The notes below the pieces were generated by a model. That model did not search any database and was not told where the DNA came from. It saw only the letters and a list, made by a program, of their open reading frames with translations. 64,000 nt of DNA from Clostridia bacterium. GTDB lineage: Bacteria > Bacillota > Clostridia > Oscillospirales > CAG-272. Positions within the stretch are counted from its first letter, which is position 1, and the number at the start of each line of letters is the position of its first letter. The stretch is taken from NCBI GenBank assembly GCA_017408585.1, contig JAFQUJ010000016.1, forward strand, positions 45,094-109,093, written 5' to 3'. Positions 8,839-57,243 of the stretch are shown piece by piece. The position numbers were made by a program, and so were the translations under genes.

Positions 8839-8910
8839 ATTATCCCCCCCTTTTTCGTTTTCGTTAGATATATTAGCACAAAGCAATCTTTAATTCAAGA
8901 TAAAAAAGAA

Positions 8911-8935
8911 AAAAACCGAGAAATTCTCGGTTTTT
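8911..8935. terminator. bidirectional hairpin terminator downstream of cysK
   Basis: AAAAACCGAGA-aat-TCTCGGTTTTT. Confidence 0.6.
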
Positions 8936-8944
8936 AGCCTTATT

Positions 8945-9871
8945 TTAAATAAAATCCGGAGTGCTAAGATATCTCTCTCCGCTATCGGTTAGGAGTGCGA
9001 CAATCGTTTTTCCCTCGTTTTCGGGGCGAGAGGCGAATTTAACCATAGCGCAAAGAGCTGCGCCTGCTGAGATGCCGACTAAAATTCCCTCGGTGGCAAC
9101 CAGCTCCTTAGCGTATTTATACGCCTCGCCATCATCTACTGTGATGATTTCGTCATAAATTTCTCGATTTAGGTTTTGGGGCACGAAATTAGCGCCTATT
9201 CCTTGGATTTTGTGCGACCCTGTGTAGCCCTTTGACAAAAGCGGAGATGCGCTCGGCTCTACTGCGATTATCTGTACGCTTGGGTTTTTGCTTTTCAAAA
9301 ATTCGCCCACTCCACTAAGTGTTCCACCTGTTCCCACGCAAGCAACAAATGCGTCTATTTTTCCGTCGGTATCAATCCAAATTTCAGGGCCTGTGGTTGT
9401 TTTATGAGCCTCGGGGTTGGCGGGATTATCAAATTGCGAGGGGATAAAGGAGTTTGGAATTTCCCCTAAGAGAGCGATTGCCTTATCTATTGCGCCCTTC
9501 ATTCCTAGTGCGCCCTCGGTCAAGACAAGCTCTGCGCCATAGGCTCTCATAAGATTTCGTCTTTCAAGTGACATTGAGTCGGGCATTACAATAATGCACC
9601 TATATCCCCTTGCTTTTGCAATCATAGCAAGGGCTATACCTGTATTACCCGAGGTTGGCTCAATTATAGTGCCACCTGTGGTTAATTTTCCGCTTTTTTC
9701 CGCCTCATTTATCATTGATAGAGCTACTCTATCCTTTGCCGAGCCTGCGGGATTAAACATCTCTAATTTGACAAGCAAGCGAGCGTTTATGCTGTTTGCC
9801 TTAACAAAGCTTGAAAGCTCGACAAGCGGTGTGTTACCTATAAGGTCTGTTATCGAATTATAGATTTTCAT
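8945..9871 (-). CDS. cysK: cysteine synthase A (O-acetylserine sulfhydrylase)
   Basis: 308 aa. IGNTPLVEL, the PLP-lysine context NPAGSAKDR, and GTGGT. Confidence 0.9.
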   Translation of the reverse strand: MKIYNSITDLIGNTPLVELSSFVKANSINARLLVKLEMFNPAGSAKDRVALSMINEAEKSGKLTTGGTIIEPTSGNTGIALAMIAKARGYRCIIVMPDSMSLERRNLMRAYGAELVLTEGALGMKGAIDKAIALLGEIPNSFIPSQFDNPANPEAHKTTTGPEIWIDTDGKIDAFVACVGTGGTLSGVGEFLKSKNPSVQIIAVEPSASPLLSKGYTGSHKIQGIGANFVPQNLNREIYDEIITVDDGEAYKYAKELVATEGILVGISAGAALCAMVKFASRPENEGKTIVALLTDSGERYLSTPDFI

Positions 9872-10862
9872 TATTCTTCTCCAAAATTGATTTTAAAACA
9901 GGATAAATTTTTTCCGCCATTCTCATAAATCCGAGGTCGGTCGGGTGACAGCCCTCTACTGTGCAAATTGAGCGATCTGTGTCGCCAAAATAGGTTTCTC
10001 CATCTATAAAATACACATTTTTATCACCTTTTGCAAGGGCGTTTTCGTAGGTGCGCTTTACGATTTCTCGACGGATTGTATTTTCCTCGACATCGCCATC
10101 AAAATCGGGCTTTGTCATCATAACGATTGGCAATGTCGGATTTGCCTCGCGTATGATTTTGAAAAACGGCTCGTGAGTTGCCTCAAGATACTCGGGCGTG
10201 GGGGCGTTATGGTCGTAATCCATTACAAAAATGCTCATATCAAGCTTTTTTATATAGTTTGCCATGGCTTCCTCGCCTCTTGCGTTACCCGACACACCGA
10301 GGTTGATATAATCGCTGTCAAGCCACCGTGTAACGAGGGCTGTGTAGCATTTTCCAACAGTTGAAGCGCATCCGCCCTCAGTAATTGACGAGCCATAAAA
10401 GACGATTGGCTTCGTATAGGTGTATGGATCTGCGCTCTCTATTGTCGCATCGTCCTCAATTTCGATATCAATATCAAGCACGGGCTCATTTCTTGGGAGC
10501 ATTAGTGTTATATTTGACATTTTATCGCTCTTTTTTACAATGCCCTCAAATTCAAGTATCCCATAATTGCTAGCATTTATAATAGCAATGCGTGTTTTTT
10601 CCTCGAAAACATCAATTCCGCAAGAGCCACTAAGAGGGATTGCCCAGTCGGGATTGTTGCTTTCCACCTTTACCTTGATTTTGATCTCTTTACTATCGGT
10701 TTTAAAGCGCACTCTGACACCTGCGCCTGAGAAAATACGCACCCCTGTGTATTCATTTACGGTTTTTGCGACATCGTCATCCATTCTAACAAGGCGATTA
10801 TTTTTGTTTATAAATGCTCCGTGAATGGTTATGGGAGTTTCCTTAAAATTATATAATTTCAT
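9858..10862 (-). CDS. SGNH/GDSL-type hydrolase with N-terminal beta-sandwich-like domain (paralog 1)
   Basis: Block I FYGSSITEGG, block III GVSGNARG and block V CHPTDLGF. Its stop overlaps the cysK start by 14 nt. Confidence 0.75.
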   Translation of the reverse strand: MKLYNFKETPITIHGAFINKNNRLVRMDDDVAKTVNEYTGVRIFSGAGVRVRFKTDSKEIKIKVKVESNNPDWAIPLSGSCGIDVFEEKTRIAIINASNYGILEFEGIVKKSDKMSNITLMLPRNEPVLDIDIEIEDDATIESADPYTYTKPIVFYGSSITEGGCASTVGKCYTALVTRWLDSDYINLGVSGNARGEEAMANYIKKLDMSIFVMDYDHNAPTPEYLEATHEPFFKIIREANPTLPIVMMTKPDFDGDVEENTIRREIVKRTYENALAKGDKNVYFIDGETYFGDTDRSICTVEGCHPTDLGFMRMAEKIYPVLKSILEKNNENL

Positions 10863-13977: not shown

Positions 13978-14066
13978 GCCGATGTGGCGGAATTGGTAGA
14001 CGCCACGGACTTAAAATCCGTTGGGAAGAAATTCCCGTACCGGTTCGAGTCCGGTTATCGGCACCA
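13978..14066 (+). tRNA. tRNA-Leu (anticodon UAA), long variable arm, encoded CCA
   Basis: GCCGATG...CATCGGCACCA acceptor, anticodon loop CTTAAAA, long variable arm, GGTTCGAGTCC T-arm. Confidence 0.9.
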
Positions 14067-14073
14067 TTAATAT

Positions 14074-14151
<78 letters not shown>

Positions 14152-14186
14152 TGTTATGCATCCAATTTGGATGCCAACCCAAAAAA

Positions 14187-14217
14187 CCCAGATGTCGTAA
14201 GGCTTCTGGGCTTTTTT
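14187..14217 (+). terminator. terminator after the tRNA pair
   Basis: CCCAGA...TCTGGG stem followed by CTTTTTT. Confidence 0.5.
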
Positions 14218-14410
14218 ATACCCATTTTTTACAGTGCAATTTTGGTAGATGCCAAACGCCAAAAACGCCGTGTGGATGGGATCTGAACTTAAATAAACGA
14301 CTTTTCAGGGGAGCTTTTGCGATTCTTTTGTTCGCAAAAATTCTTTTTTCATTGTTTTATTTGTAAACTATTTGTGTTCAAATAATAATTCGGGATAATT
14401 ACAAAATGCC

Positions 14411-14439
14411 TTGATTTATTCATAAAAAAGTGATATAAT
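14411..14439 (+). promoter_or_regulatory. sigma70-like promoter upstream of the structured leader/sRNA
   Basis: TTGATT (14411-14416), 17 nt spacer, TGaTATAAT (TATAAT at 14434-14439). Confidence 0.6.
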
Positions 14440-14445
14440 AATAAT

Positions 14446-14652
14446 GCTAAACCAACTTAATATGCTAAAAAGAGCTTTTTTGTTTCCAAGGGGGGTACTA
14501 TACCCTTTTTTCGGCTTTCTACATATGGATTTGATAAAAATGCAAATCCCGCTTGTAGAAAGCAGATTAGCTCTGTCGTATTCAAGTTGGTTTAGCGACT
14601 TGGGGTTTGCGTTTTTTGTGCGTTGGCTCTGGTCAGCGCACTTTTTGATTTT
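14446..14652 (+). ncRNA. unclassified structured RNA: either a cis-regulatory leader of the lipoprotein gene or an independent sRNA
   Basis: Perfect 13 bp long-range helix 14446-14458/14584-14596. Perfect 10 bp helix 14514-14523/14554-14563 enclosing a 7 bp hairpin 14527-14533/14543-14549. 6 bp helix 14471-14476/14569-14574. Terminator-like 10 bp hairpin 14618-14641 followed by TTTTTGATTTT. Confidence 0.5.
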
Positions 14653-14658
14653 GGGGGT

Positions 14659-15513
14659 ATGACTGTGAAAAAATCTATATGGATAGCGTTAATACTGATG
14701 CTTGTTTGCATATTCTCTTTTTTTGCTTGTGATCAGGGGGATACACCGCCTAACAATGATGGAAATAATGATAACAATAATTCTACAGAATGCCAACATA
14801 CTTTTGGGAATTGGAATACCGTAAAACAAGCCACCTGCAAAGAAGAAGGCTCGCTTATTCGTACTTGTAGTAAATGCTACAAAACAGAGGAGTCTACCAT
14901 TTCCAAGACCGATACACATATATGGGCTCAAGCAACATGTTCTTCACCAAAGAAGTGTCAATTGTGTGGCACAATAGAGGGGGAGCCTCTTGAACATGAT
15001 TGGGGAAATCCAACTTGTACGACACCAAGATCTTGTTTGGTTTGTTGGACTGTTGATGAAAAATCTGAAGCATTAGGACATACGTTTGTAAATGGCGAAT
15101 GTCAGATTTGCGGGGATCAATCCGAAGATTATTTAGCAGATTATGACAAATATTTAATGGCGGCACATCTTTACCAAGCTGTAATAGATTCTGCAAAATT
15201 CCCGTCAAGTGTTCGCATTGAAAGAGCATATTATATAAATGATTTGGGAAAAGGATTTCCTGCCGTTAGATTAGAATGTGCGGCGGCAAATTCTATGGGT
15301 GGTTATGGTATTCTTTACGGAGTGGTAATACAGTATCCTTCGCAAGGTTATGAAGACAATCCTTATGCAGATCATGTTTATGTATACGAAGATTTATATT
15401 GTTTTGAATGCAGCATATATGATAGTTGCCCAGTGCTTAATTATAATGGATATGAGAAGCTCGATATAGAACGTATTATAACGGTTCATAATGAAGATAT
15501 CAACTTTGATTAA
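14659..15513 (+). CDS. putative lipoprotein with three Cys-rich (H-x-F/W...ATC...C-x2-C) repeats
   Basis: MTVKKSIWIALILMLVCIFSFFAC is a signal peptide with a lipobox Cys. ATG at 14659 follows GGGGGT. The rest is repeated Cys modules and a C-terminal globular part. Confidence 0.7.
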   Translation: MTVKKSIWIALILMLVCIFSFFACDQGDTPPNNDGNNDNNNSTECQHTFGNWNTVKQATCKEEGSLIRTCSKCYKTEESTISKTDTHIWAQATCSSPKKCQLCGTIEGEPLEHDWGNPTCTTPRSCLVCWTVDEKSEALGHTFVNGECQICGDQSEDYLADYDKYLMAAHLYQAVIDSAKFPSSVRIERAYYINDLGKGFPAVRLECAAANSMGGYGILYGVVIQYPSQGYEDNPYADHVYVYEDLYCFECSIYDSCPVLNYNGYEKLDIERIITVHNEDINFD

Positions 15514-15653
15514 ATTTAAAATAATCGATTTAAAGCAACGGTGGTTTGCATCTATTAAGGATGCACATGAAACGGACACCAAAATTCAAAAGCCCTTGAT
15601 TTTATTGACTTTTTGAGGGTGGCATCTATTAAGGCGGTACAACACAAGATAAA

Positions 15654-15685
15654 CAAAAAACGAACCGCTTTGGTTCGTTTTTTGT
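15654..15685 (+). terminator. rho-independent terminator
   Basis: AAAAAACGAACC-gcttt-GGTTCGTTTTTT. Confidence 0.65.
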
Positions 15686-15689
15686 TTAT

Positions 15690-15866
15690 CAGCTAAATTT
15701 GCACGAGTGCAAGATAAATTGAGTATATCTCAGCTAAATTCCTAACGGAGCTAGATTGGCTTTGCCAGCCATGGTGAGCAAATTTAATTTAGCTGTGTAA
15801 CAATTTCGCTAATGCGAAGATTTATCGTAGCATTAATTTCGCTATCACGGAGTGATAATTTAGCTA
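15690..15866. repeat. cluster of AGCTAAATT direct/inverted repeats and short palindromes (candidate structured RNA or protein-binding array)
   Basis: AGCTAAATT at 15691 and 15732, with the variant AGATAAATT at 15712. Inverted copies AATTTAGCT at 15786-15794 and 15857-15865. Small hairpins lie between them (TTGCA-cgag-TGCAA, TTCGC-taat-GCGAA, TATCAC-gga-GTGATA, GGCT-ttgcc-AGCC). Confidence 0.5.
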
Positions 15867-15932
15867 TTTACTTAAACTTTGTTGTGTAATATAATTAGGT
15901 TCAAATTACAAACAATATGCTCAACCAAACGC

Positions 15933-15958
15933 AAAGGACACCATTCGGTGTCCTTTTT
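15933..15958 (+). terminator. orphan rho-independent terminator (no CDS upstream of it)
   Basis: AAAGGACACC-attc-GGTGTCCTTT followed by TT. Confidence 0.6.
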
Positions 15959-16069
15959 ACTTTGGTTATGAGAGTGAATTGTATTCACGACTTTCTTGGT
16001 TATTATAGTATTGATTTTGACAAGCTTTTATGATAAAATATATATAAGAAGACTTAGCGAGGTGATTTT

Positions 16070-18085
16070 ATGAAAAAAAGCTTAAAAGTTGGAATTGTCG
16101 CAATGATTATTTCTCTTATTGTGACTCTGGGGCTATGGGCGTTTGGTCTATTTGTTCTTGGCGACATAATTGGCGATCAGTTGGGCGGTGTTATATTTGC
16201 GATTTTGTTCTTTGCTGTTCTCTTTTTAATGATTGTTGATTTAATTATTGGTAGCATAATAGATAGAAAATATGCGAACAAAAGCGTTGGGACAATACAT
16301 CAGCTTATTCGTGAGCGACAGGAGCGCATAAACGAGGATCTTGAAAAATCAACAAGAAAAATCCACGCCATAGCGACGCTATGCAAGGTATTTATTTTCG
16401 TTTTGACGCTTTTGTGTCATGCTCTTGCCTTATTTATTGGCGCTATGGGTCCGGAGCCTAGCATTCTTATGGCGTTTATAATTCCTGTGAATTTGAGCAT
16501 ATATGCAAAAATTGCGGTTTCATATTTTAGCTTTGAGCTTCCCGACACATATGTAACTGACGACGAATTTCCTCTTATATATGGGCTTGCTAACAAGGCT
16601 ATGAAGGAGCTTGGACTCAAGGGACGCCTTTACATCTTTCCAACAAATGATTTTGACGCATCAATTGCACAAATTAACGGTGGGTACATAATTAACCTTG
16701 GCACAAGCCTTGCAAGAGCCTCCTACGAGGACGAGCTTTATAGCATATTTTTGCACGAATTCGCACACATGTCGCAATCTACTCCAAAATCTGTTGGCTA
16801 TCACTTTATTAATCTTATCGAGGGTGAAAACGAGGGCTTTGGATTTTTCAATGTGATTTGGAGCATCTTCTTTGTCGGCTTTATGAAGCTATTCTATTTC
16901 GAGCATAATTTTTATAGAGCTCTTGCCTCTGTTCAAATTGAAGCCATGGCTGACTCTATTGTTTTAAGCAAGGGTGATGCGATAGCATATGCTAACGCCT
17001 TAGCAAAGGCATCAATACACAATAGGTTTGACAGAGTTTTCTCCGAGTTCTCCTCCGGCATTTTAAACGAGGGTGATACTATTCGTGAGGATATCGCGAC
17101 GCTATTTTATAACCAATATGCCGACACCTTTGTAAAGGTCAAGGACAAGTGGCTTGTCGAGCTTGAGGTGGAGCTTCAGCCAAGGAATGCCTCTCACCCA
17201 ATTTACAGGCTTAGACGAGATGCTCTTGGCGTTAGTGCTGACGAGGTAAATCCGAGCTTGCCCGATATCTCCTATGCTCTTGCTCTCGAGGCTGACAGGC
17301 TTTTAAGGTGGGCTGACAGCTTAACCCTTGAGCACTTCAAGAATGACTACGAGCAGATACACAAAATACATTATCTTGACCCTCTCAACATTGTAAACGC
17401 TTGGGAGGCAAACGAGCGAGCTTGCACAATTGAAGAAAGCGTCGAGATAATTCACGCACTAAGAATGCTTAACAGAAAAAGCGATGCAGAGGAGCTTTGT
17501 GACAGAATAATTGCTGAAGCGCCAAATCCAAACGCTTGCGCTCACGCTACATTTTACAAGGCGTACAGGCTTTTATCGAGAGGCGACAACTCCGGAATCG
17601 ACATTCTTTATGGACTTTGTGACACAAATCAAAACTATGCAGAGGAAGCTCTTAACCTAATTGGTGAATACTGCTGTGCAAAGGGCTTGCAGGAGCGTCT
17701 TGACGAATATCGCACAAGAGCGGTTGAAATTATTCAGCGAACGGTTGACGAGCAAGAGTTTTCGACGCTTAGCTACAAGGACAATTTAATTCATGACGAT
17801 ATGCCACAAGAGCTTATTGACAGCCATATAAGCTACATTCTTGGCGTCGGTGAAAATCGTATAAAAGAAATACATCTTGTAAAAAAGGTGACTAGCAAGG
17901 GAGATTCGACAAGTATATTCCTAGTAGATTTTCTGCCGAATACTGATTACGAGGCGGTAAATCGAATTATGAACAAGATATTCATTCATTTAGATGCATG
18001 CGAGGAGCAATATTCTCTGTTCCTTTTAGATGCGCATTACAGAAGCGTTTTACAAAAGCTAAACACCTGTGTTTACAAGGCTTAG
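16070..18085 (+). CDS. membrane-anchored putative zinc metalloprotease (HExxH) with helical-repeat C-terminal domain
   Basis: 671 aa. N-terminal TM segments, an FLHEFAHM (HExxH) motif, and an alpha-helical, TPR-like C-terminal half. Exact family not recognised. Confidence 0.5.
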   Translation: MKKSLKVGIVAMIISLIVTLGLWAFGLFVLGDIIGDQLGGVIFAILFFAVLFLMIVDLIIGSIIDRKYANKSVGTIHQLIRERQERINEDLEKSTRKIHAIATLCKVFIFVLTLLCHALALFIGAMGPEPSILMAFIIPVNLSIYAKIAVSYFSFELPDTYVTDDEFPLIYGLANKAMKELGLKGRLYIFPTNDFDASIAQINGGYIINLGTSLARASYEDELYSIFLHEFAHMSQSTPKSVGYHFINLIEGENEGFGFFNVIWSIFFVGFMKLFYFEHNFYRALASVQIEAMADSIVLSKGDAIAYANALAKASIHNRFDRVFSEFSSGILNEGDTIREDIATLFYNQYADTFVKVKDKWLVELEVELQPRNASHPIYRLRRDALGVSADEVNPSLPDISYALALEADRLLRWADSLTLEHFKNDYEQIHKIHYLDPLNIVNAWEANERACTIEESVEIIHALRMLNRKSDAEELCDRIIAEAPNPNACAHATFYKAYRLLSRGDNSGIDILYGLCDTNQNYAEEALNLIGEYCCAKGLQERLDEYRTRAVEIIQRTVDEQEFSTLSYKDNLIHDDMPQELIDSHISYILGVGENRIKEIHLVKKVTSKGDSTSIFLVDFLPNTDYEAVNRIMNKIFIHLDACEEQYSLFLLDAHYRSVLQKLNTCVYKA

Positions 18086-25451: not shown

Positions 25452-27344
25452 TTATTCCTCGTCATTTGTAGGAACGAGTGCATCAAGAGTTGTTGGAGCA
25501 AGAACCTTTTCAGCCTGCTCATAGGTTACTGTATAGAGGCTTGCGTCCTCGTAGTCAAGAGTTGATACCTTGCATGAGGTTGTTGTGTCCTGAATGAACT
25601 GAACCTCTTCGCCTTCAACATAAGCATACGCTGTGATTACAAGCTCCAGCTGTGTAAGCTCTGTTGTGGTAAAGCCACTAATTGAGAACTTGAAGTTATT
25701 ATACTCTACGCTCTCTTGCTCTATCATGATAGCGCCCTTCTTGCCTTCTGCCAAATTAACGCTTCCGTCTGCTTTCAAGAAGCGATTGCTTGCTAGGTGG
25801 GTTGGGTTTAGCATCAAGATACCGAAGGTGATATCCTTTTCGTTATGGAGATTATATAGGTCAAAGTTGTCCTTATTTACTGTCCAACCGCCTGCAATTG
25901 AGCCTGAGCCATCAATTGAGTATCCACCTGTGGTGCTGAAGATTGGATCAAGGTCTATTTTTTCGTTTGCTTGGTTACAGTTTTCTACTTGACAGAAGAT
26001 TTCGTGCAAGCCTGCGCTTGTAAAGCCCTCTGTGTAGGTTATTATATGCTTTACATTATGATCGTCTGCTACCTTTGCGATAAAGCCCTTACACTGAACG
26101 CCCTCTGCCTCGTTGTAGTTCTTGCAGTAGTTATCCTTTGTGCAATCGTAGTTTTCAAACTCGTGCTCGAGCATTGAGTTTGGTGTTTCAATGGCGCTTA
26201 GCTCCTTACCGCAGAAGCAGTTTGTTGTTACCTTTTCAAGTGAGTAACAGGTTGCTGGGACAAGATCTGCGAGTCTTGGATCTTCGAGGTGCTTTGCAAG
26301 ATCAGCTTCAGACGCACAGAATACGGCTGTTCTTGTGTTTGAATAGCTTTCAAAATCCGAGCTTGACTTATCGTTTGCGTTTGCAAAAATAATTTTTTGT
26401 GTGCTTCCCCAATATCCTGTGGAAATTGTAGTCATGTCGCCCAAAAATACGATTGTATTTTTAGGTCCGTTCTGGAAGAAATACTGATTTGGCATAGCTG
26501 TGAGTTTATCGCCAAATACTAATACATCGTTTAGATTCTTACATTCTCTACATACGCTATTGTTTGAAATGCTCGTAAGGTTTGCAGGGAAATAGTAAAT
26601 TTCCGGTTTTTCCGGAACATTCTCATATGTAAAGGTTTCGTTTACAAAATACATATTAACGCAATCATCAAAGCTTGCATTTCTTGATCCGCCGCCACCA
26701 CTTGACCATGTTTCAAGCGACTCCGAAAGGTGTACCGCACCTAAGTTCGTACATCCTGAAAAGTGAGCAACATCGTATAGCGAGGTAAAGCAGTCGGGCA
26801 TTGAGAATGCTTTAAGATTTTTACAGCCATAGAACATATATGACGGGAAGACTCTCATCGTATTGTTTTCACTAAACTTAAGTGTACACTCCTCAAGTCC
26901 TGTTGCATTTTGGAAAATGGCATTTGAAAGACTTGATATAGTATCTGGGAAGGTTATCCACTTCAATGTTGTACCGTTGCTTCCTGCATACTTTGCAACA
27001 TGAGTGATTCCGGTAGGGATATCGAAGCCCTTTATGTCTGCATAAGTATAAAGATTGCCAGCCTCCTCGGTTTTGCCAAGCTTGCTGTTGATATAGTCAA
27101 AATCCATATAAGACTCAAAAGTAGTATTATAGTTTCCTGAGCCTACGGTCGAGGTATCCTTAAACACATAGCTTACAGGACACTTAAAGCCGTCATAGAA
27201 TTCAACAATTTCGCTATCAATACATTGATATTTGGTTCTTACAGGTGCGTCGGTGTAGGTTGTAACCTCTGCACTAACAGAGATTGCAAGCACAGCGCAA
27301 AGTGCAATTACCATTACAAGAGTTAAAAGCAATTTCTTTTTCAT
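25452..27344 (-). CDS. secreted BspA-type leucine-rich-repeat protein, paralog 1 (signal peptide + LRR + Cys-rich module + conserved C-terminal domain)
   Basis: 630 aa. Signal peptide MKKKLLLTLVMVIALCAVLAISVSAE. LRR_5-like repeats (FQNATGLEECTL, FYGCKNLKAF, FSGCTNLGAV). The C-terminal ~190 aa are nearly identical to paralog 2. Confidence 0.75.
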   Translation of the reverse strand: MKKKLLLTLVMVIALCAVLAISVSAEVTTYTDAPVRTKYQCIDSEIVEFYDGFKCPVSYVFKDTSTVGSGNYNTTFESYMDFDYINSKLGKTEEAGNLYTYADIKGFDIPTGITHVAKYAGSNGTTLKWITFPDTISSLSNAIFQNATGLEECTLKFSENNTMRVFPSYMFYGCKNLKAFSMPDCFTSLYDVAHFSGCTNLGAVHLSESLETWSSGGGGSRNASFDDCVNMYFVNETFTYENVPEKPEIYYFPANLTSISNNSVCRECKNLNDVLVFGDKLTAMPNQYFFQNGPKNTIVFLGDMTTISTGYWGSTQKIIFANANDKSSSDFESYSNTRTAVFCASEADLAKHLEDPRLADLVPATCYSLEKVTTNCFCGKELSAIETPNSMLEHEFENYDCTKDNYCKNYNEAEGVQCKGFIAKVADDHNVKHIITYTEGFTSAGLHEIFCQVENCNQANEKIDLDPIFSTTGGYSIDGSGSIAGGWTVNKDNFDLYNLHNEKDITFGILMLNPTHLASNRFLKADGSVNLAEGKKGAIMIEQESVEYNNFKFSISGFTTTELTQLELVITAYAYVEGEEVQFIQDTTTSCKVSTLDYEDASLYTVTYEQAEKVLAPTTLDALVPTNDEE

Positions 27345-27539: not shown

Positions 27540-29432
27540 TTATTCCTCGTCATTTGTAGGAACGAGTGCGTCAAGAGTTGTTGGAGCAAGAACCTTTTCT
27601 GCTTGCTCGTAGGATACTGTGTAGAGGCTTGCGTCCTCGTAGTCAAGAGTTGATACCTTGCATGAGGTTGTTGTGTCTTGAATGAACTGAACCTCTTGTC
27701 CTTCAACATACGCATACGCTGTAATTACAAGCTCCAGCTGTGTAAGCTCTGTTGTAGTAAAGCCACTAATTGAGAACTTGAAGTTATTATACTCTACGCT
27801 CTCTTGCTCTATCATAATAGCGCCCTTCTTGCCTTCTGCCAAATTAACGCTTCCGTCTGCCTTCAAGAAGCGATTGCTTGCTAGGTGGGTTGGGTTTACC
27901 ATCAAAATACCGAAGGTAATATCCTTTTCGTTATGGAGATTATATAGGTCAAAGTTATCCTTATTTACTGTCCAACCGCCTGCAATTGAGCCTGAGCCAT
28001 CAATTGAGTAGCCACCTGTGGTGCTAAAGATTGGATCAAGGTCTATTGATGCGTCAAGCTGTGTGCAGTTTTCGTTTTGGCAGAATATCTTATGCAAGCC
28101 CATGCTTGTAAAGCCACTCACATAGGTCACTGTATTCTTTTCGATATGACTAAGTGCCTCGGCCTCGAGTGAAGCTCCACAATGTGCGTAATTCTTGCAC
28201 TCATTTCCCTTGGTGCAATCAAAATTTTCCTCATACTCGTGATCAAGCATTGTGTTTGGTGTTTCGCCCTCGCTAATCACAGTATTGCAGAAGCAACGGG
28301 TTACGCCCTTTTCGTTTGAGTAGCATGTAGCAGGCTCAATAGTTGAATGTTTAGGGCTTGCCATGTGCTTTGAAAGGTCGCTTTCGGAAGCGCAGAATAC
28401 GGCTGTTCTTGAATTGGTGTAACTTGCAAAATCCGCACTTGATTTGTCGTTAGCGTTTGCAAAAATTATTTTTGAAGTTTTCCAGTTGGTTGTATTTATC
28501 TCGGTCATATCTCCAAGGAATACAACCGTGCTTGTAACATTCTTGAAAAGATAGCTACCGCTTGCGGAGGTGATCTGTGTTCCGAACACCAAAACGCTGT
28601 TCAAGGAAGTGGCACTTTCAAAGGTGTTTGTGTGAATGGTGTGAAGACTTTCGGGGAAGTAGTAAATATCGGGTTTTGCAGGGGCTGTATCACTTGTAGT
28701 AAATGGTTCGCTTACAAAATATACCTTGCTGAGGTTTTGAAAGACTGCGTATCTGTTCGAGCCTGTCTTTTCAAGTATTTGAATGTTTTTCGATAGATAA
28801 ACGGGACCCAAGCTCGAGCAATCTTTAAAGAAGTTACCCTCACCTGTTATCGTGGTAATGCAGTCGGGAATGCTAAGCGCCTTTAATTTTGAGCAACCAG
28901 CGAACATCCAACCGGAAAGGGTTGTAAATTCGGTATCGGCTTCCGTATGCTCAAAAACAACCTCTTCAAGAACTGCTGAGTTTTGAAAACCGGTACTACC
29001 AATGGATGTAACGGTGTGGGGGAATGTGATTTTCTTAACCGAGCTCAAGGAGTGGGCAAATTGATCTCCAAGGGTAGTAATTCCCTCCGGAATATCAAGC
29101 TCAACAATGTTGTCAATTGTGTAATTCTTTCCCTTTTCCGTAAGGAATGAAAAGTCAAGCACTTTCTTAAGTCCAGCATTTCCGTAGGAGCCCTTATCAA
29201 CGGTTGCTTGGTCCTTGAAAATATAATGGCTTGGGCAAACAAATCCGTCATCAAACACAACATAGTCGTCAGTTGAGTTGACAAAGGTTGATTTTGCGGG
29301 CGCGTCGGGGTAGGTTGTAACCTCTAAAGCCTCGCCATCAACCGTTGTAATCGTTTTTGCACTTACGCAAAGAGCGAAAATCGAGCAAAGTACAATTACC
29401 ATTACAAGAGTTAAAAGTAATTTCTTTTTCAT
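27540..29432 (-). CDS. secreted BspA-type leucine-rich-repeat protein, paralog 2
   Basis: Start placed at MKKKLLLTLVMVIVLCSIFALCVSAK (ATG 29432, after AAGGAGA), giving 630 aa like paralog 1. The ORF-track upstream extension to 29507 would cover the conserved promoter/UTR. Confidence 0.75.
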   Translation of the reverse strand: MKKKLLLTLVMVIVLCSIFALCVSAKTITTVDGEALEVTTYPDAPAKSTFVNSTDDYVVFDDGFVCPSHYIFKDQATVDKGSYGNAGLKKVLDFSFLTEKGKNYTIDNIVELDIPEGITTLGDQFAHSLSSVKKITFPHTVTSIGSTGFQNSAVLEEVVFEHTEADTEFTTLSGWMFAGCSKLKALSIPDCITTITGEGNFFKDCSSLGPVYLSKNIQILEKTGSNRYAVFQNLSKVYFVSEPFTTSDTAPAKPDIYYFPESLHTIHTNTFESATSLNSVLVFGTQITSASGSYLFKNVTSTVVFLGDMTEINTTNWKTSKIIFANANDKSSADFASYTNSRTAVFCASESDLSKHMASPKHSTIEPATCYSNEKGVTRCFCNTVISEGETPNTMLDHEYEENFDCTKGNECKNYAHCGASLEAEALSHIEKNTVTYVSGFTSMGLHKIFCQNENCTQLDASIDLDPIFSTTGGYSIDGSGSIAGGWTVNKDNFDLYNLHNEKDITFGILMVNPTHLASNRFLKADGSVNLAEGKKGAIMIEQESVEYNNFKFSISGFTTTELTQLELVITAYAYVEGQEVQFIQDTTTSCKVSTLDYEDASLYTVSYEQAEKVLAPTTLDALVPTNDEE

Positions 29433-29492
29433 ATTTTTCTCCTTGTGGGGTCGAGTGGCTCGACGCCCATTATAAAATATTACTGTAGTTAT

Positions 29493-29521
29493 ATTATATA
29501 TTACCAAGCATTATATGTCAA
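29493..29521 (-). promoter_or_regulatory. sigma70-like promoter of LRR gene 2
   Basis: Minus strand: TTGACA (29521-29516), 17 nt spacer, TATAAT (29498-29493). Confidence 0.6.
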
Positions 29522-50614: not shown

Positions 50615-50643
50615 TTGACAAAGGTTAAATGCTATGTTATAAT
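50615..50643 (+). promoter_or_regulatory. consensus sigma70 promoter of rplJL
   Basis: TTGACA (50615-50620), 17 nt spacer, TATAAT (50638-50643). Confidence 0.7.
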
Positions 50644-50649
50644 CTTGTC

Positions 50650-50800
50650 GTTAATCCAAAGACAGCAGGTCACGGTAATTGCATTTATGCTCCCTGCCGA
50701 GGAAGAATTTAAATATGAATTTAAAATCTTTTTTCGGTGTGCATTTTTGCGATTTCGGGAAAAGATTTTTCTTTTTGCTGTAAAGGAAATAATACAGGAG
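50650..50800 (+). promoter_or_regulatory. ribosomal protein L10 leader (autoregulatory 5'UTR)
   Basis: About 160 nt of structured UTR between a consensus promoter and rplJ, the position and size expected for the Firmicute L10 leader. I did not verify the covariance-model structure. Confidence 0.5.
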
Positions 50801-52688: not shown

Positions 52689-52822
52689 TTTTTGCTCCTT
52701 GTGGGTATTCTTCTTTTTTTCTTTGTACTTTTTCTTTAAGAGAAGAAAAAGCTACCAAAAAGAAACTATATGAAAAATCCATCTTTAATTTATTTTACCA
52801 CACATTACCCAAATTTACAAGT

Positions 52823-52887
52823 AAGGAGCAGGAAATTCCTGCTCCTTATTCTTTTTTACTATTCAGACACAGAACCGTCTTCTGTCT
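52823..52887 (-). repeat. island repeat, type A copy 3 (core GACGGTTCTGTGTCT + GAAtAGTAAAAAAGAATAAGG + hairpin)
   Basis: Shares the core and AGTAAAAAAGAATAAGG with copies at 54611 and 56561. The hairpin here is AAGGAGCAGG-aattt-CCTGCTCCTT. Confidence 0.8.
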
Positions 52888-53320
52888 GCTTCCTTTGCTT
52901 AATACATAAAGCTACAGATGATAATATCAATATCACTCCTAACACAGACACAAAAAACAAAAATATCAACGCACTTCCGAAGTTTATTGTTTGTAATCCA
53001 TATAGTCTTATGGCAAAATTTGAAAAATAAAAATCCAAAACGAATGTAATAATCGGAGTCAATACAAATTGAACGCATGCGATTAAAAACAAATTAAATT
53101 TTCTCGACATAGAAAAGCACCAAAAAATTATCAAAAGCATAAATCCAGATGCAAGTATAATTGCTAAAATAACAAAGAAAGCACCCAACTTCATTCCATT
53201 CAATTCAACGCCTATTACCGCAATCATTAAGCATATGAAAAAAGCTACCGACTCTGCAAAAGAAATAACAATCGCAAAGGCTATATTTTTTAGTGCATCT
53301 AATATCTTATTATTTATCAT
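52859..53320 (-). CDS. small polytopic membrane protein, candidate immunity protein
   Basis: 153 aa, about 4 TM. Its ATG overlaps (ATGA) the stop of the Ntox44-like frame upstream. Confidence 0.55.
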   Translation of the reverse strand: MINNKILDALKNIAFAIVISFAESVAFFICLMIAVIGVELNGMKLGAFFVILAIILASGFMLLIIFWCFSMSRKFNLFLIACVQFVLTPIITFVLDFYFSNFAIRLYGLQTINFGSALIFLFFVSVLGVILILSSVALCIKQRKQTEDGSVSE

Positions 53321-53608
53321 TTGATACCTCCGTTTCGTATTTCATACAAAACAATTCCCAAAGCTATGCATCTAGAATCTCGTGGCTCATCAAAGAAAGT
53401 AGTCCAATAGCTCCATTTGCTAGTTCTAGATCGTATTTGTATTGCTCCACCCGCTAAAAATAATGTATGTGCAGGAAATAATTCGCGTCCCACATATCCA
53501 TAATGAATATTTCCCGGATCATCAAATCTTAAAGGAACACCATGAAGCCCAGCAAGGACAAAACTGTAATTATCACTAAAAATACAAAAAAATATAACAT
53601 TTTTTCAT
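53317..53608 (-). pseudogene. frameshifted small secreted toxin gene, polymorphic-toxin type 44 (Ntox44)-like
   Basis: RBS AAGGAG plus ATG (53608) gives MKKCYIFLYF-stop. After a T7 run (A7 at 53586-53592 on the + strand) the +1 frame reads FCIFSDNYSFVLAGLHGVPLRFDDPGNIHYGYVGRELFPAHTLFLAGGAIQ...DEPRDSRCIALGIVLYEIRNGGIK. The span is 292 nt, i.e. 3n+1. Confidence 0.6.
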
Positions 53609-53649
53609 TTTCACTCCTTAATAAAGTTTATATCCTGCTTTTGCAGCTC

Positions 53650-53685
53650 TGTCAAGACAAGCTTACTTTGGAGACACAGAACCAC
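53650..53685 (-). repeat. island repeat, type B copy 2 (core + CCAAAGTAAGCTTGTCTTGACA)
   Basis: Minus strand: GGTTCTGTGTCTCCAAAGTAAGCTTGTCTTGACA. The TTGACA, a 17 nt spacer and TATAAA form a promoter-like element facing the Ntox44-like gene. Confidence 0.8.
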
Positions 53686-54400
53686 ATCCTATATCCTTTA
53701 AAATTTTTAAAAATTTATTTCTTAATTTTTTATATTGAAAAATATACAAACCATCTTTTTGTGTGCCCATAAAAGCAACTTTTTTTGAAGTTATTATACC
53801 GACTGGAAAATGGTAATATTTGTATCCTTGTGCAACATTTTCATTTACATAATTCACAAATGAGGAAGAAACTTGATCAGCAATAATAATATTAATAGTC
53901 TTAATTACTGCATAAATTCTTTCGCTTTCATAATAATTTTTCAAAACATCAAAAATCATTTGTTTTATTTTATAACTCGAAAACTCCTCTTCCTCGCCAA
54001 ACTTCATTATTGTTACACATTCAGCCTCAAAAGGAAATCTTTTACTTTTGATGTAAAATTCAATACGATGATTTGCTTGAATAGACAAATATCCGTTAGA
54101 CAACAAGTTACTTCTTATTTTTTCATAAAAATTCTCATAACTATCAAACAAATGTTCTATTTTTTGAGCATGTGTTTTAGGGCGCTTTAAATCCATTTTG
54201 AAAATAGAAATAAACATGACCATTATGGATATTATAGCACTTAAAAGCAAACATATAGTTATTGTTTGATATATTTCATCAGTCAGTTTAGAAAACACAT
54301 ATTTCCCAAAAAGCGCAAATACAAACAACGAGCACAATAATGTCCATGTGGAAATTATTAAGAACTTTACGACTATATTTTTGTTATCTCTCAAAAGCAT
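53663..54400 (-). CDS. hypothetical membrane protein (2 N-terminal TM + cytoplasmic domain), candidate immunity protein
   Basis: 245 aa. Its start is overlapped by the end of an upstream start-less ORF fragment. Confidence 0.5.
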   Translation of the reverse strand: MLLRDNKNIVVKFLIISTWTLLCSLFVFALFGKYVFSKLTDEIYQTITICLLLSAIISIMVMFISIFKMDLKRPKTHAQKIEHLFDSYENFYEKIRSNLLSNGYLSIQANHRIEFYIKSKRFPFEAECVTIMKFGEEEEFSSYKIKQMIFDVLKNYYESERIYAVIKTINIIIADQVSSSFVNYVNENVAQGYKYYHFPVGIITSKKVAFMGTQKDGLYIFQYKKLRNKFLKILKDIGCGSVSPK

Positions 54401-54560
54401 TCCCCTTTCTATGAAAAATCTGAATAGTTTCTTTTTGGTTAGAATTGCTTATTACATCAATCGAAGAAACCGCCATCATTTGTACCGATATTTGACCTAT
54501 ATTTGCAGTTGCATGTTCTCCTAAAAGTGATTGTATGAGTGTTTGAGGAACCTCGCTACA
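54384..54560 (-). pseudogene. start-less ORF fragment, candidate orphan toxin C-terminal remnant
   Basis: Open frame bounded by an upstream TAA: CSEVPQTLIQSLLGEHATANIGQISVQMMAVSSIDVISNSNQKETIQIFHRKGNAFER. It overlaps the next gene's ATG by 17 nt. No family recognised. Confidence 0.35.
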
Positions 54561-54610
54561 TTAAAATAAACGCTACGATTCTTGTTCAGTGTATATATTT
54601 AGTTTTGAAT

Positions 54611-54683
54611 AGGGGGGAGTTTCCTACCCCTTATTCTTTTTTACTGTTCAGACACAGAACCGTCCCATGTCTCCTCCATGTCA
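54611..54683 (-). repeat. island repeat, type A copy 2
   Basis: Minus strand: TGACATGGAGGAGACATGGGACGGTTCTGTGTCTGAACAGTAAAAAAGAATAAGGGGTAGGAAACTCCCCCCT. Confidence 0.8.
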
Positions 54684-55172
54684 CTTTTCTTCAATACACT
54701 CAATTTTTTCTTTTAATTTTAAATAATCTCTATATAAAATTTTAAATTTAATTTGTTTCGAATTGTCCAATTTGATTTCAAACAATCCGCCTAATTGTTG
54801 TTTATAAAAATATATAAAAGGAATGTTATACCATTTGCATACATAATACCTTGCAAAAATCACCTGAGAATATTCATATTCTTTTTGAAAAATTACAAAT
54901 GTTTTTTCTTTTAAGATTAATATGTTTTTATTATTTGAATTTGCAATAAAACAAAGCAACATTGAAATTCCCATTATCAAAATACATAGAATATACAAAA
55001 TCACAATTATCTTATATATTAAAGGATTTTGATTATGAAATAAAGAAATGATAAGAAGCAGTGTGTTTATATAAAAAATCAAACTTGGTAAAATGGTGCA
55101 CATAACTATGCCTTCAAACAAATTTATTTTTATTTTTCTCATTATGTTTACCCTTCTAAAATGCGTTTTCAA
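54681..55172 (-). CDS. hypothetical membrane protein, candidate immunity protein
   Basis: 163 aa, 2-3 TM. Follows the glycine-zipper-like fragment. Confidence 0.5.
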   Translation of the reverse strand: MKTHFRRVNIMRKIKINLFEGIVMCTILPSLIFYINTLLLIISLFHNQNPLIYKIIVILYILCILIMGISMLLCFIANSNNKNILILKEKTFVIFQKEYEYSQVIFARYYVCKWYNIPFIYFYKQQLGGLFEIKLDNSKQIKFKILYRDYLKLKEKIECIEEK

Positions 55173-55180
55173 AAAATTTG

Positions 55181-55333
55181 TTAGGAATAAAACTTATCGT
55201 GAAATATAGCCGAGTCAATTGCGTATTGTGCCAAGCCCATTCCTGCTCCCACAGCAATAGAACCAACTAAACCAATGCCCGTATAAGGCAATGCTGTTGA
55301 AGCAACTGCAAACAACCCATCAATTCCCGCCTG
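55181..55333 (-). pseudogene. start-less fragment encoding a Gly-zipper-like hydrophobic C-terminal peptide (candidate membrane-active toxin remnant)
   Basis: My translation: QAGIDGLFAVASTALPYTGIGLVGSIAVGAGMGLAQYAIDSAIFHDKFYS-stop. No ATG or RBS. It begins next to the stop of the upstream gene. Confidence 0.4.
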
Positions 55334-55343
55334 TCTGTTCTGT

Positions 55344-55739
55344 CTAAAATTTTCCTCTACCTATGGCATCGTCATAGACCAATCTTAAAAGAGTAAGCAC
55401 AGAAAATACTATAAAAGCATAGTGCCAAAAAGTAAACCTTAAGAATACAAATTCATTTATTAATAAAATACAAATCGTTAGACACCCTAACAAAATATGA
55501 ATGTATGACAAATAAGCAATGCATCTGTATTTTCTATCATAATATTCCTTGAAAATTGGTATCCAAAAAAAGCGTTCAACAGCCGACCAGTTTGTTTTGT
55601 AATGCTTTTTCGCTCTTTTCCAACTTTTTCCATGTCCATATTTTCTTGGATAAGCAATTGCGACAAAAACGCCTCTTGCATGCCAATCCGTTATCGCAAA
55701 TGATAATATAACAAGAGAAATCACACCTAAAATATACAT
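55344..55739 (-). CDS. hypothetical membrane protein, candidate immunity protein
   Basis: 131 aa, 3-4 TM. Its ATG sits immediately after the TAA of a 29-codon fragment. Confidence 0.5.
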   Translation of the reverse strand: MYILGVISLVILSFAITDWHARGVFVAIAYPRKYGHGKSWKRAKKHYKTNWSAVERFFWIPIFKEYYDRKYRCIAYLSYIHILLGCLTICILLINEFVFLRFTFWHYAFIVFSVLTLLRLVYDDAIGRGKF

Positions 55740-55829
55740 TTAATCCCCCCCGTATTTAACAACAGATTTTACTGCTTTAGTCCAAATAGAATTAGAGCCC
55801 GCCTCTATCCACTCTAACGCTTGTCCGTT
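55740..55829 (-). pseudogene. 29-codon start-less fragment (candidate toxin C-terminal tip)
   Basis: NGQALEWIEAGSNSIWTKAVKSVVKYGGD-stop, abutting the next ATG (GATTAAATG). Confidence 0.3.
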
Positions 55830-55849
55830 TTAAATTCAAGTGAAACAAC

Positions 55850-55920
55850 GAATCTTCTCCATGTCAAGACAAGCTTACTTTGGAGACACAGAACCGTCCC
55901 TTGTCACCTGTCCTGTCTTC
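55850..55920 (-). repeat. island repeat, type B copy 1
   Basis: Minus strand: GGGACGGTTCTGTGTCTCCAAAGTAAGCTTGTCTTGACATGGAGAAGATTC. Confidence 0.8.
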
Positions 55921-56244
55921 TCAAAATTTAAATATATGTACATTCTCACCTTTTTTTATCACTTTTTCGTACTCTTTTGGCGATATAATATGAGCTGAAT
56001 TATTCTTAAATAAAATGTAGTTTGTAATAATAGACTCAATAGTTTCTTCTATATCAAACTTATCAACATCATGATAATGAATATCATCAATATAAACATC
56101 AAAAAAACCAAAGTTAAAAACTATTTTAATAAAGTGATTCATTGAATTATCAATAATCAAATCATTTTCATTTAACACAATCTTATAACTCAGCAATTTT
56201 TTTGAAATTACCTCATAAAGTTGTTTTAACGATTCACATCTCAT
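55921..56244 (-). CDS. small cytoplasmic protein, candidate immunity protein of the RHS-derived fragment
   Basis: 107 aa, acidic, no TM. RBS GGAGGTG, 16 nt after the stop of the upstream fragment. Confidence 0.5.
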   Translation of the reverse strand: MRCESLKQLYEVISKKLLSYKIVLNENDLIIDNSMNHFIKIVFNFGFFDVYIDDIHYHDVDKFDIEETIESIITNYILFKNNSAHIISPKEYEKVIKKGENVHIFKF

Positions 56245-56260
56245 AACATCACCTCCATAA

Positions 56261-56576
56261 TTAGAAGAAATAACCTAAACCAGACGAAATAAATCCATTA
56301 ACAATACCAGGAGTGAAGAATCTATGTAGAGCCCTTAGGGAATTAGATTTACCAAAATGATAATGTAATCCATTTAGTTCTTTTCCACTCAGAGTAAGCG
56401 GCAACTGCAACTCCATTATCGCTCATTACTATAATTATATCACCTTGAAGATTCTTTGTAAAGTAATAATACTCAAATTGTTCTTCCGTTGGCAGATTTG
56501 GATTTTCTTTGCTTCCGTCACGATATGCCATTCCAATGGGAGCGCCTGATTCGTCATAGAAATAAGGGGTAGTTTC
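56261..56576 (-). pseudogene. RHS/YD-repeat protein 3' fragment with an internal frameshift (orphan toxin C-terminus)
   Basis: Open frame from a TAG at the repeat-A hairpin: ETTPYFYDESGAPIGMAYRDGS...EYYYFTKNLQGDIIIVMSDNGVAVAAYSEW, which is the YD-repeat pattern. It stops at 56349. The +1 frame after an A4 run continues KELNGLHYHFGKSNSLRALHRFFTPGIVNGFISSGLGYFF-stop at 56261. Confidence 0.6.
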
Positions 56577-56627
56577 CTACCCCTTATTCTTTTTTTACTG
56601 TTCAGACACAGAACCGTCTTCTGTCTG
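56561..56627 (-). repeat. island repeat, type A copy 1
   Basis: Minus strand: CAGACAGAAGACGGTTCTGTGTCTGAACAGTAAAAAAAGAATAAGGGGTAGGAAACTACCCCTTATT, with an 11 bp perfect hairpin (56561-56571 / 56578-56588). Confidence 0.8.
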
Positions 56628-56643
56628 TTTACTCTGTGTGTTC

Positions 56644-57096
56644 TTAAAACCGTGCGCCGTCGGGAGTTGGATATGTGTTTATCCAACCACAAAGATCAGT
56701 TATACCAAGTTCATTACACAAAGCCTCATACTCTTCTATTGTTAAAGAATCATATACATCTTTCGTTTCCGTATTGATTATACAGTATTTTGCCTTTTCG
56801 ATGTCCATTTTTAATATTTCTTCCTGTCTTGCATCACTGGCTAACTCAAAACGCCTTGCACACACATATTTATCATTATAAGCAAAACAAACAACATAAT
56901 TATCTATTACTTTGGAATAAGCATTACCTTTTTCATTCTTGATTCCTATTCCAATGGAATTACTGTTTGCTCTAACAATATAATAGTCATTTGGCAACTC
57001 GTATTCCCAATCAGACAGTCCTGGACTAACACAAGAAAAAAGCGAAAAGCATATTATTGCTATAATTATCAAACACAGTATATTTGTTTTTTTCAT
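56644..57096 (-). CDS. putative lipoprotein (DUF3997-like by recollection)
   Basis: MKKTNILCLIIIAIICFSLFSC has a lipobox. Start taken at the second ATG (57096), after GGTGA. Confidence 0.55.
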   Translation of the reverse strand: MKKTNILCLIIIAIICFSLFSCVSPGLSDWEYELPNDYYIVRANSNSIGIGIKNEKGNAYSKVIDNYVVCFAYNDKYVCARRFELASDARQEEILKMDIEKAKYCIINTETKDVYDSLTIEEYEALCNELGITDLCGWINTYPTPDGARF

Positions 57097-57243
57097 GGCA
57101 ATTTCACCCATAATTCTACATACAATTTCCCATATTACAAAATATCCAAACGATACAATGGATAATTTTGGTATTCTTTAATTTATTTTATCACATATTA
57201 TGTCAATTTACAAGTAATTAGAAAATTTTCGTTTAAGTACAAT

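Follow-up and report, generated by a model that had tools for sequence, protein, structure and literature searches.

The 64,000-nucleotide stretch of a Clostridia bacterium contig analyzed here (JAFQUJ010000016.1, positions 45,094 to 109,093 of the forward strand, assembly GCA_017408585.1; hereafter the window) contains an AT-rich island of ~4.4 kilobases (kb) that is probably a heterogeneous orphan-immunity (polyimmunity) array, derived from the 3' ends of Rhs-type loci, whose cassettes are exchanged at a short core sequence found at their junctions. The island, in an uncultured ruminant-gut Clostridia host, spans 52,782-57,217 including a 43-nucleotide (nt) direct repeat at each flank, and sits between tyrS, directly upstream, and a metallophosphoesterase gene. 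Its G+C content (GC) is 31.0% (52,825-57,174) versus 42.0% in the remaining window, with the profile passing from 0.42-0.47 in the flanks to 0.25-0.37 between ~52.8 and 57.2 kb, which we count as support for this reading, and every substantial open reading frame (ORF) of the island lies on the minus strand, as do all island features described below. The GC counts and the ORF map thus confirm the AT-rich island with ORFs on one strand that had been described from the letters of the same DNA (the original prediction). The cassette order in the window, by protein length in amino acids (aa), is 155, 107, 131, 163, 245 and 153. The five units of a stub followed by a small gene that had been predicted are all in place, including the tight joints TAAATG before the 131 aa gene and ATGA before the 153 aa gene; absent from that inventory were the 155 aa gene, the repeats at the cassette boundaries and the 43 nt flank repeat, all found here. 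The overall reading of the original prediction, an orphan toxin-tip/immunity array, is supported, and none of the observations that would speak against it, such as a lack of toxin homology in all fragments, housekeeping functions of the small genes or an invariant gene content among strains, was made.

Five junctions in the island share a quasi-palindromic core of ~19-27 nt, GGGACGGTTCTGTGTCT(CC/GA), also written (G)GGACGGTTCTGTGTCT(CC/GA), in which the arms GGAGACA ... TGTCTCC surround an asymmetric centre (GGAGACAGGGG-ACGGTT-CTGTGTCTCC). Each junction consists of a variable number of GACAG-type short repeats, the core and one of two tails, named R1 and R2. The R1 tail is an A-run, GAACAGTAAAAAAGAATAAGG, followed by a hairpin, and the R2 tail is CCAAAGTAAGCTTGTCTTGACA, followed in some copies by promoter-like hexamers (read by eye). 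Junctions A (56,561-56,630; core 56,620-56,602, A-run, 12 bp hairpin 56,588-56,561), C (54,607-54,682; core 54,666-54,648, imperfect hairpin 54,635-54,607) and E, the terminal one (52,820-52,887; core 52,881-52,863, 10 bp hairpin 52,850-52,820), are of type R1. Junctions B (55,862-55,919; GACAG repeats, core 55,900-55,882) and D (53,650-53,695; variant core 53,688-53,670) are of type R2 and have identical tails. Two of the three R1 elements, A and E, fold far better than shuffled sequence (z of -6.6 and -7.0, respectively). The R1 hairpins are terminator-like by a score computed on the plus strand only, and their gene-strand layout of A-tract, hairpin and T-rich tail would suit a bidirectional terminator. 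The aligned R1 tails fall into only two hairpin types; co-variation in this second hairpin is thus equivalent to a single compensatory change, which is weak evidence. A hairpin role of the core itself, judged from co-variation of its arms, was rejected, since each arm goes with a different cassette and changes in one are not matched in the other.

Four copies of the 15-mer core are present in the window, each of them inside the island, while shuffled sequences give an expectation of 0.05 and none of 100 shuffles reaches four; among all fetched loci, the core is confined to such arrays. Several ORFs read into the core and stop at a TAA or TAG just past it, the 245 aa gene ending in GSVSPK and the 153 aa gene in DGSVSE within the core, and others stop 0-20 nt short of it. 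The same core and R1 tail, with unrelated cassettes of which one belongs to DUF6980, are found in an independent metagenome contig (L013). There the core is present in both orientations, and the forward core, hairpin and reverse core fold as an imperfect palindrome of ~95 nt; the window and the strain alleles have forward cores only. This contig was the one true match of a degenerate 21-mer junction pattern in a metagenome collection, and the same pattern gave one chance match, in a metagenome-assembled genome (MAG) of Hellea, in a collection of species-representative genomes and nothing in a viral collection. A BLAST search of the repeat against plasmid and phage sequences gave no match. An Rfam scan found nothing in the island at gathering score, the sub-threshold matches being generic hairpins, and direct reading of all junctions found no GTTRRRY box in the invariant part of the core, GGTTCTGTGTCT.

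The cassettes differ strongly between strains. Several ruminant-gut metagenome assemblies contain the window version of the array, with the genes in the same arrangement and the six main ORFs intact. A strain with an identical TyrS (L009, GCA_045588205.1) has a different array, with the order 239, 129, 131, 173, 186, 141, 205, 124 and 152 aa, and two loci whose phosphoesterase genes are 98% identical (L017 and L018) have another, with the order 239, 129, 228, 186, 221, 155, 124 and 152 aa. Three full-length cassette sets, plus partial contigs, were thus found between identical or 98%-identical flanking genes, and the comparison of related strains that had been proposed earlier gave strongly variable cassette content rather than the same intact genes everywhere. 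Between these versions, homology begins and ends at the cores wherever a core separates the cassettes. For example, the 131 aa cassette, which the window and L009 have in common, is missing in L017, and the resulting joint combines the left flank of L009 core 1 with the right flank of core 2, the switch lying inside the core. The tail after the 186 aa cassette is R2 in L009 and R1 in L017, implying that a tail moves together with the cassette downstream of it. The 153/155 aa cassette closes the array in the window and is followed by two further cassettes in L017, and the ORFs of shared cassettes are intact across the alleles. The two versions of the first gene, both encoding lipoproteins (155 and 239 aa), have the promoter, the 5' untranslated region and the first 27 signal-peptide codons in common. 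Their breakpoint (57,029 in the window, 11,477 in L009) directly follows TTTTCTTGTGT, i.e. TTTTC(T/G)TGTGT, a sequence similar to the right half of the core; this site, seen in two versions only, may be an attI-like primary site.

Two kinds of process could act at the cores, namely general homologous recombination over the repeats of 20-170 nt, or a site-specific or hairpin-recognising recombinase encoded elsewhere, and we give them roughly equal weight. Dedicated sites are favoured by the palindromic shape, the inverted copies in L013, ORFs cut back as far as the core and the fact that cassettes without a core in other organisms have one here, and plain homology is favoured by the recombinase searches, which found none, by the long homologous tails and by core-less deletion junctions. 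The second process can be extended to an integron-like capture system, in which the cores would be attC-like dedicated sites for a tyrosine or serine recombinase, or an HUH single-strand enzyme, encoded elsewhere, the cassettes would move singly and the array would be comparable to a recombinase-less CALIN. A CALIN is a cluster of attC sites without an integrase, and attC sites carry the boxes RYYYAAC ... GTTRRRY. The island resembles integrons and CALINs in its promoter at one end, its compact, co-oriented and mostly promoterless cassettes, the imperfect-palindrome site at the cassette ends, the cassette-level gain and loss, and the ORFs that end in the site. Consistent with capture of this kind are the quasi-palindromic core with an asymmetric centre, its two orientations and the ~95 nt imperfect palindrome in L013, the gain/loss joint within the core, the trimming of ORFs to 0-20 nt from the core or into it (...DGSVSPK and stop), as in integron cassettes, and the first-gene breakpoint after TTTTC(T/G)TGTGT, akin to the right half of the core.

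However, IntI was not found among the screened window ORFs, no recombinase was found in the window or its 10 kb flanks, RYYYAAC and GTTRRRY boxes (the latter the integron R-box) are missing from the core, and the window sites are half-palindromes. In addition, the cores of the window and the strain alleles are in the forward orientation only, the two arms of the core do not co-vary, the tails add plain homology over 22-170 nt, a length sufficient for exchange by RecA, no more than three or four alleles were observed, and the searches found the repeat hardly anywhere beyond this locus, with one true metagenome match and none in the genome, viral, plasmid and phage collections. We consider integron-like capture possible, at clearly less than even chances. 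The same modest degree of belief applies to a bolder version, that gut Clostridia have a capture system of their own with a ~27 bp site, GGAGACAGGGGACGGTTCTGTGTCTCC, which harvests, trims and stacks foreign Rhs immunity ends behind a chromosomal promoter. If this holds, immunity cassettes could be mined from metagenomes with the core as a probe, as integron cassettes are with attC.

The repeats could also be passive, R1 being a shared 3' untranslated region or terminator and R2 a 5' leader, both inherited through duplication or copying of modules of one ancestral rhs locus, with the strain differences produced by homologous recombination after DNA uptake and by random deletions. The terminator-like R1 hairpins (by the plus-strand scoring), the promoter-like hexamers read by eye in R2 tails, the existence of core-less deletion junctions and the recombinase searches, which came back empty, are all in line with this explanation. 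It accounts less well for cassettes that stem from unrelated toxin families and for the 107 aa module, which is core-less in other organisms, two observations from which we conclude that the cassettes are independent acquisitions which gained the core and did not inherit it. The core is also palindromic and better conserved than its surroundings, and L013 has inverted copies of it, so that we regard purely passive repeats, too, as a tentative explanation with a probability well below one half.

Under the orphan-immunity reading, each cassette would combine a toxin-gene stub, ranging from an rhs core end down to a few C-terminal codons, with an intact presumed immunity gene, the toxin part having been whittled away through deletion and frameshift. 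The stub of unit 5 is a remnant of Ntox44 (53,608-53,320; Pfam PF15607, E 4.5e-11). The match, a 95-codon open stretch (53,604-53,320), extends over positions 40-103 of the 104-position profile; neither positions 1-39 nor a delivery domain is present, and the motifs GNxxxG and DxxxD, given for Ntox44 in PMC3482391, are retained. The stub goes off frame at a T7 run (53,592-53,586), and deletion of one T from this run yields a 96-codon ORF with an ATG start and the ribosome-binding site AAGGAG, so the earlier description of a frameshifted Ntox44-like gene was correct. A homologue search with the stub recovered nothing but the same 58 aa ORF, in a Clostridia MAG; a full-length relative was not among the results. 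In L017, all but ~25 codons of the Ntox44 stub have been cut away, and what is left is fused to the gene before it. This cut, together with a core-less joint in the window (see below), suggests that the toxin stubs erode by ordinary deletion and the downstream genes remain intact.

Unit 1 starts with an rhs 3' remnant containing the last YD repeats (56,352-56,576; TPYFYDESG ... YYYFTKNLQGDII ... AAYSEW), which aligns with residues 1150-1195 of the homologue P0136 (E 3e-5) and residues 30-59 of the homologue P0130 (E 4e-5) and gave no match in direct Pfam and NCBIfam searches. Through a +1 frameshift and an internal deletion, this remnant is joined to the C-terminal tail of a toxin domain (56,264-56,422, starting LNGLHYHFGKSNSLR / SGKELNGLHYHFGKSNSLRALHRFFTPGIVNGF), which matches residues 310-341 of P0130 (E 8e-12). 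The complete form of this unannotated Rhs-delivered toxin domain is seen in P0005, P0129 and P0130. In relatives it stands, preceded by a Gly-rich linker, at the end of proteins that match the Pfam RHS_repeat family and reach 1,503 aa; P0130, in addition, has matches to the core ends of Rhs proteins of solved structure. Based on these homologue alignments, unit 1 is an rhs 3' end from which the core terminus, the linker and the larger part of the toxin domain have been lost. The RHS/YD fragment of the original prediction thus contains a YD-repeat piece as claimed, but this piece is fused to a toxin-domain tail. Assigning the second half of unit 1 (RYYDP...) to the rhs core end was considered and discarded, because the homologues place it in the toxin domain's own C-terminal tail. 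An RHS-like remnant in L009 (12,150-12,290) matches the ends of the same Rhs proteins (E 1e-8).

The 29-codon tip of unit 2 (55,743-55,829) is part of a conserved stretch of ~150 nt that precedes different genes in other arrays. The Gly-rich fragment of unit 3 (55,184-55,360) has no Pfam match; it shows weak similarity (E ~0.06-0.1) to the linkers of P0136 and P0129 and may be a remnant of the Gly-rich linker of an Rhs toxin. In unit 4, a 58-codon start-less fragment (54,387-54,560) overlaps the ATG of the 245 aa gene. The profile searches suggested earlier as a check bore out toxin homology for one of the five fragments (Ntox44), alignments to homologues did so for a second (the rhs end with its tail), and neither did for the remaining three. 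The rhs core-end fragments at 56,576-56,352 of the window and at 12,150-12,290 of L009 are possible homology arms through which cassettes could be swapped into an expressed rhs gene elsewhere and change the toxin that is deployed. We find such a silent toxin store very improbable, as no cassette has a complete toxin domain and the remnants amount to ~25-96 codons, one of them frameshifted.

Among the small genes, the 107 aa gene of unit 1 (55,921-56,244) offers the clearest link to a toxin. In four contigs from other organisms, a homologue of it follows the same toxin domain at a distance of 16-17 nt, namely in L032 (with a complete C-terminal domain; 50% identity, E 2e-34), L014 (86% identity), L033 and L034, and dN/dS, the ratio of nonsynonymous to synonymous substitution rates, is 0.17-0.46 across the family. 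From this conserved pairing in the sequences, the 107 aa protein is a putative immunity protein for that Rhs-delivered toxin. In L033 (961-3012), we also observed an IS110-family transposase gene directly upstream of the pair formed by the truncated toxin (77 aa) and a 110 aa immunity protein. The 107 aa protein had been called acidic; the gene exists, but a pI of 5.7 makes its product only mildly acidic. A single-sequence AlphaFold model of it has a pLDDT of 67.6, and with this low-confidence model Foldseek found no significant similarity in the Protein Data Bank (PDB; best E 0.23).

For the 153 aa gene (52,859-53,320), which encodes a multi-pass membrane protein, the support consists of its adjacency and translational coupling to the Ntox44 stub in two array versions. 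We infer from position alone that the remaining small genes are immunity genes as well. These comprise the 131 aa gene of unit 2 (55,344-55,739), encoding a membrane protein with three hydrophobic segments, the 163 aa ORF of unit 3 (54,681-55,172) and the 245 aa gene of unit 4 (53,663-54,400), whose product has two N-terminal hydrophobic segments. The 163 aa ORF does encode a membrane protein, as had been predicted, but the likelier start is the ATG at 55,142, the choice of gene callers, which gives 153 aa. The only family matches of cassette genes are DUF3997, DUF5071, DUF2812 and DUF6980; the first gene of the window (57,111-56,644) encodes the DUF3997 lipoprotein of 155 aa (Pfam E 2.5e-7). 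No housekeeping family appeared among the small genes in the family searches, and a PADLOC search of the island gave no defence-system match. The products of these genes would neutralise toxins delivered by competing strains.

The same observations bear on whether the island is merely the decaying downstream region of a dead rhs gene or other acquired junk with non-functional small ORFs. The toxin parts are clearly dead, two genes do not show a dN/dS below 1 within the species, and most genes have no family match, as expected from such decay. On the other hand, the six main ORFs are intact in a layout that recurs in several metagenome assemblies, shared cassette ORFs stay intact while the stubs shrink to varied extents, dN/dS is 0.17-0.46 in the 107 aa family, a promoter copy stands at the head of the array, the genes are tightly joined (TAAATG, ATGA), and sister species show that the site never held an rhs gene. 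We therefore consider decay of the whole island unlikely. The original claim that the toxin parts are dead and the downstream genes intact agrees with the strain comparison, where the stubs are cut to different extents and the downstream ORFs are whole.

The position of the island can be compared with the corresponding site in sister species. In L027 (phosphoesterase 78% identical) the gap between tyrS and the phosphoesterase gene is 198 nt, and in L029/L030 (70%) it is 98 nt, with no array; these empty sites have a single promoter copy, ACTTGTAAAT...TGTGATAAAATAAATTAAG. A third sister species, L025 (68% identical), has at this site (8670-9905) an unrelated gene for a Ser-rich lipoprotein of 411 aa with its own promoter and terminator. 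Since two sister species are empty and the third has an unrelated gene, the array was inserted at the tyrS-phosphoesterase site, and the gap seems to be a recurrent insertion site. In the window, the right 43 nt direct repeat (52,782-52,824) is the metallophosphoesterase promoter and the left one (57,175-57,217) is a duplicate of it (TTGTAA-17-TAAAAT, with TG upstream). The two copies (57,217-57,175 and 52,824-52,782) are 86% identical and exactly flank the island, and this duplication fits a Campbell-type integration, after which one promoter copy would drive the array and the other would keep the phosphoesterase gene expressed. The earlier comparison with orphan arrays downstream of rhs genes holds for the type of module but not for the location, as there is no rhs gene here and the site in sister species is empty or occupied by an unrelated gene. 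One further contig, L005 (ERZ28653841 scaffold_253590), is identical to the window at 53,864-52,777 and diverges at the end of the 43 nt repeat; the 114 nt beyond the repeat (L005 1090-1203) were not found elsewhere in the window or in any fetched locus, and L005 is either a chimeric scaffold or a second genomic context of the right end of the array.

Several results weigh against an orphan-immunity array exchanged at cores, even though we consider it probable. Some joints lack a core, for example that between the 131 aa gene and the Gly-rich fragment in the window and that between the 221 aa and 155 aa cassettes in L017, and these two must come from ordinary deletion outside the core. The fragments of units 2-4 showed no significant toxin homology in family and protein searches. 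The immunity role is deduced from conserved adjacency in the sequences, which is demonstrated for the 107 aa family only, and Pfam and NCBIfam searches found no Imm or SUKH-type family among the small genes. Within the species, purifying selection is not apparent for the 131 aa and 153 aa genes (dN at least equal to dS). Between the window (55,344-55,739) and L009 (12,921-13,316), all five substitutions in the 131 aa gene are nonsynonymous (pN, the nonsynonymous proportion, 0.019; pS, the synonymous one, 0), and the 153/155 aa gene has a within-species dN/dS of ~1.2 from few changes; the substitution counts in both genes are too small to separate relaxed from diversifying selection. Finally, a Pfam screen of the 20 window ORFs of at least 296 aa, including the largest two (903 and 1,031 aa), found RHS, LXG, integrase, recombinase or transposase domains in none of them. 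Eighteen are housekeeping or carbohydrate-active proteins, and two (671 aa and 296 aa) have no Pfam match. The precomputed Pfam annotation of the 10 kb flanks likewise includes no RHS/LXG, integrase, recombinase or transposase domain. With respect to the RHS and LXG domains, the screened ORFs and the flank annotation also bear out the earlier statement that the window contains no intact delivery gene.

The array is related to several known systems. Orphan rhs-CT/immunity arrays (Koskiniemi-type modules) are located downstream of rhs genes. The island shares with them the tandem arrangement of rhs core-end fragment, toxin C-terminal domain and immunity gene, but it has no parent rhs upstream, its site is empty in two sister species, its toxin domains are stubs, and its cassettes are bounded by a non-coding core and not by rhs homology alone. 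The rAID-1 clusters of Bacteroidales are orphan immunity arrays with repetitive intergenic sequences "reminiscent of integrons" (Ross et al., bioRxiv 10.1101/471110). Like them, the island has co-directional orphan immunity genes, a GC content below that of the host, intergenic repeats, strain variation and cassettes from diverse toxin systems. Unlike them, it has tyrS in the upstream position, where a XerD-like tyrosine recombinase at the 5' end defines rAID-1, and its toxins are of the Rhs type in Clostridia rather than type VI secretion system (T6SS) effectors in Bacteroidales. The repeat sequences are unrelated, toxin stubs are retained here, and protection by the island is a prediction from sequence. 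Heterogeneous polyimmunity loci, usually without an intact toxin gene and often beside XerC/D, were already reported in Firmicutes (Zhang et al. 2012, PMC3482391). Tandem, co-oriented and unrelated small genes that differ between strains within a species are common to those loci and the island; the members here fall outside the published Imm families, XerC/D is not beside the array, and a junction core with cassette-precise breakpoints is absent from the description in PMC3482391.

Elsewhere in the window, two adjacent minus-strand genes (25,452-27,344 and 27,540-29,507; 630 and 655 aa) look like tandem surface-protein paralogues, as both carry BspA-type leucine-rich repeats. At 13,978-18,085, two tRNA genes (13,978-14,148) are followed by the 296 aa and 671 aa ORFs without Pfam match. 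An ordinary ribosomal protein L10 leader (50,638-50,781; Rfam RF00557, 52 bits) lies upstream of rplJ-rplL, and the whole-window Rfam scan reported no T-box leader upstream of tyrS.

Orphan immunity arrays are thought to shape the persistence of strains in dense gut communities. The cases studied in most detail, in Bacteroidales, rely on a XerD-like recombinase next to the array. The same array logic, with low GC, co-oriented genes, strain-variable content and repeated junctions, is seen here in an uncultured ruminant-gut lineage of Clostridia; unlike in the Bacteroidales, the cassettes are Rhs-derived, the junction repeat is another one and there is no recombinase beside the array. The locus provides a candidate recombination site that can be tested, as well as two toxin-immunity pairs for assay, the P0130-type domain with the 107 aa protein and Ntox44 with the 153 aa membrane protein, and it would capture a stage at which toxin genes are being eroded and the presumed immunity genes are kept.

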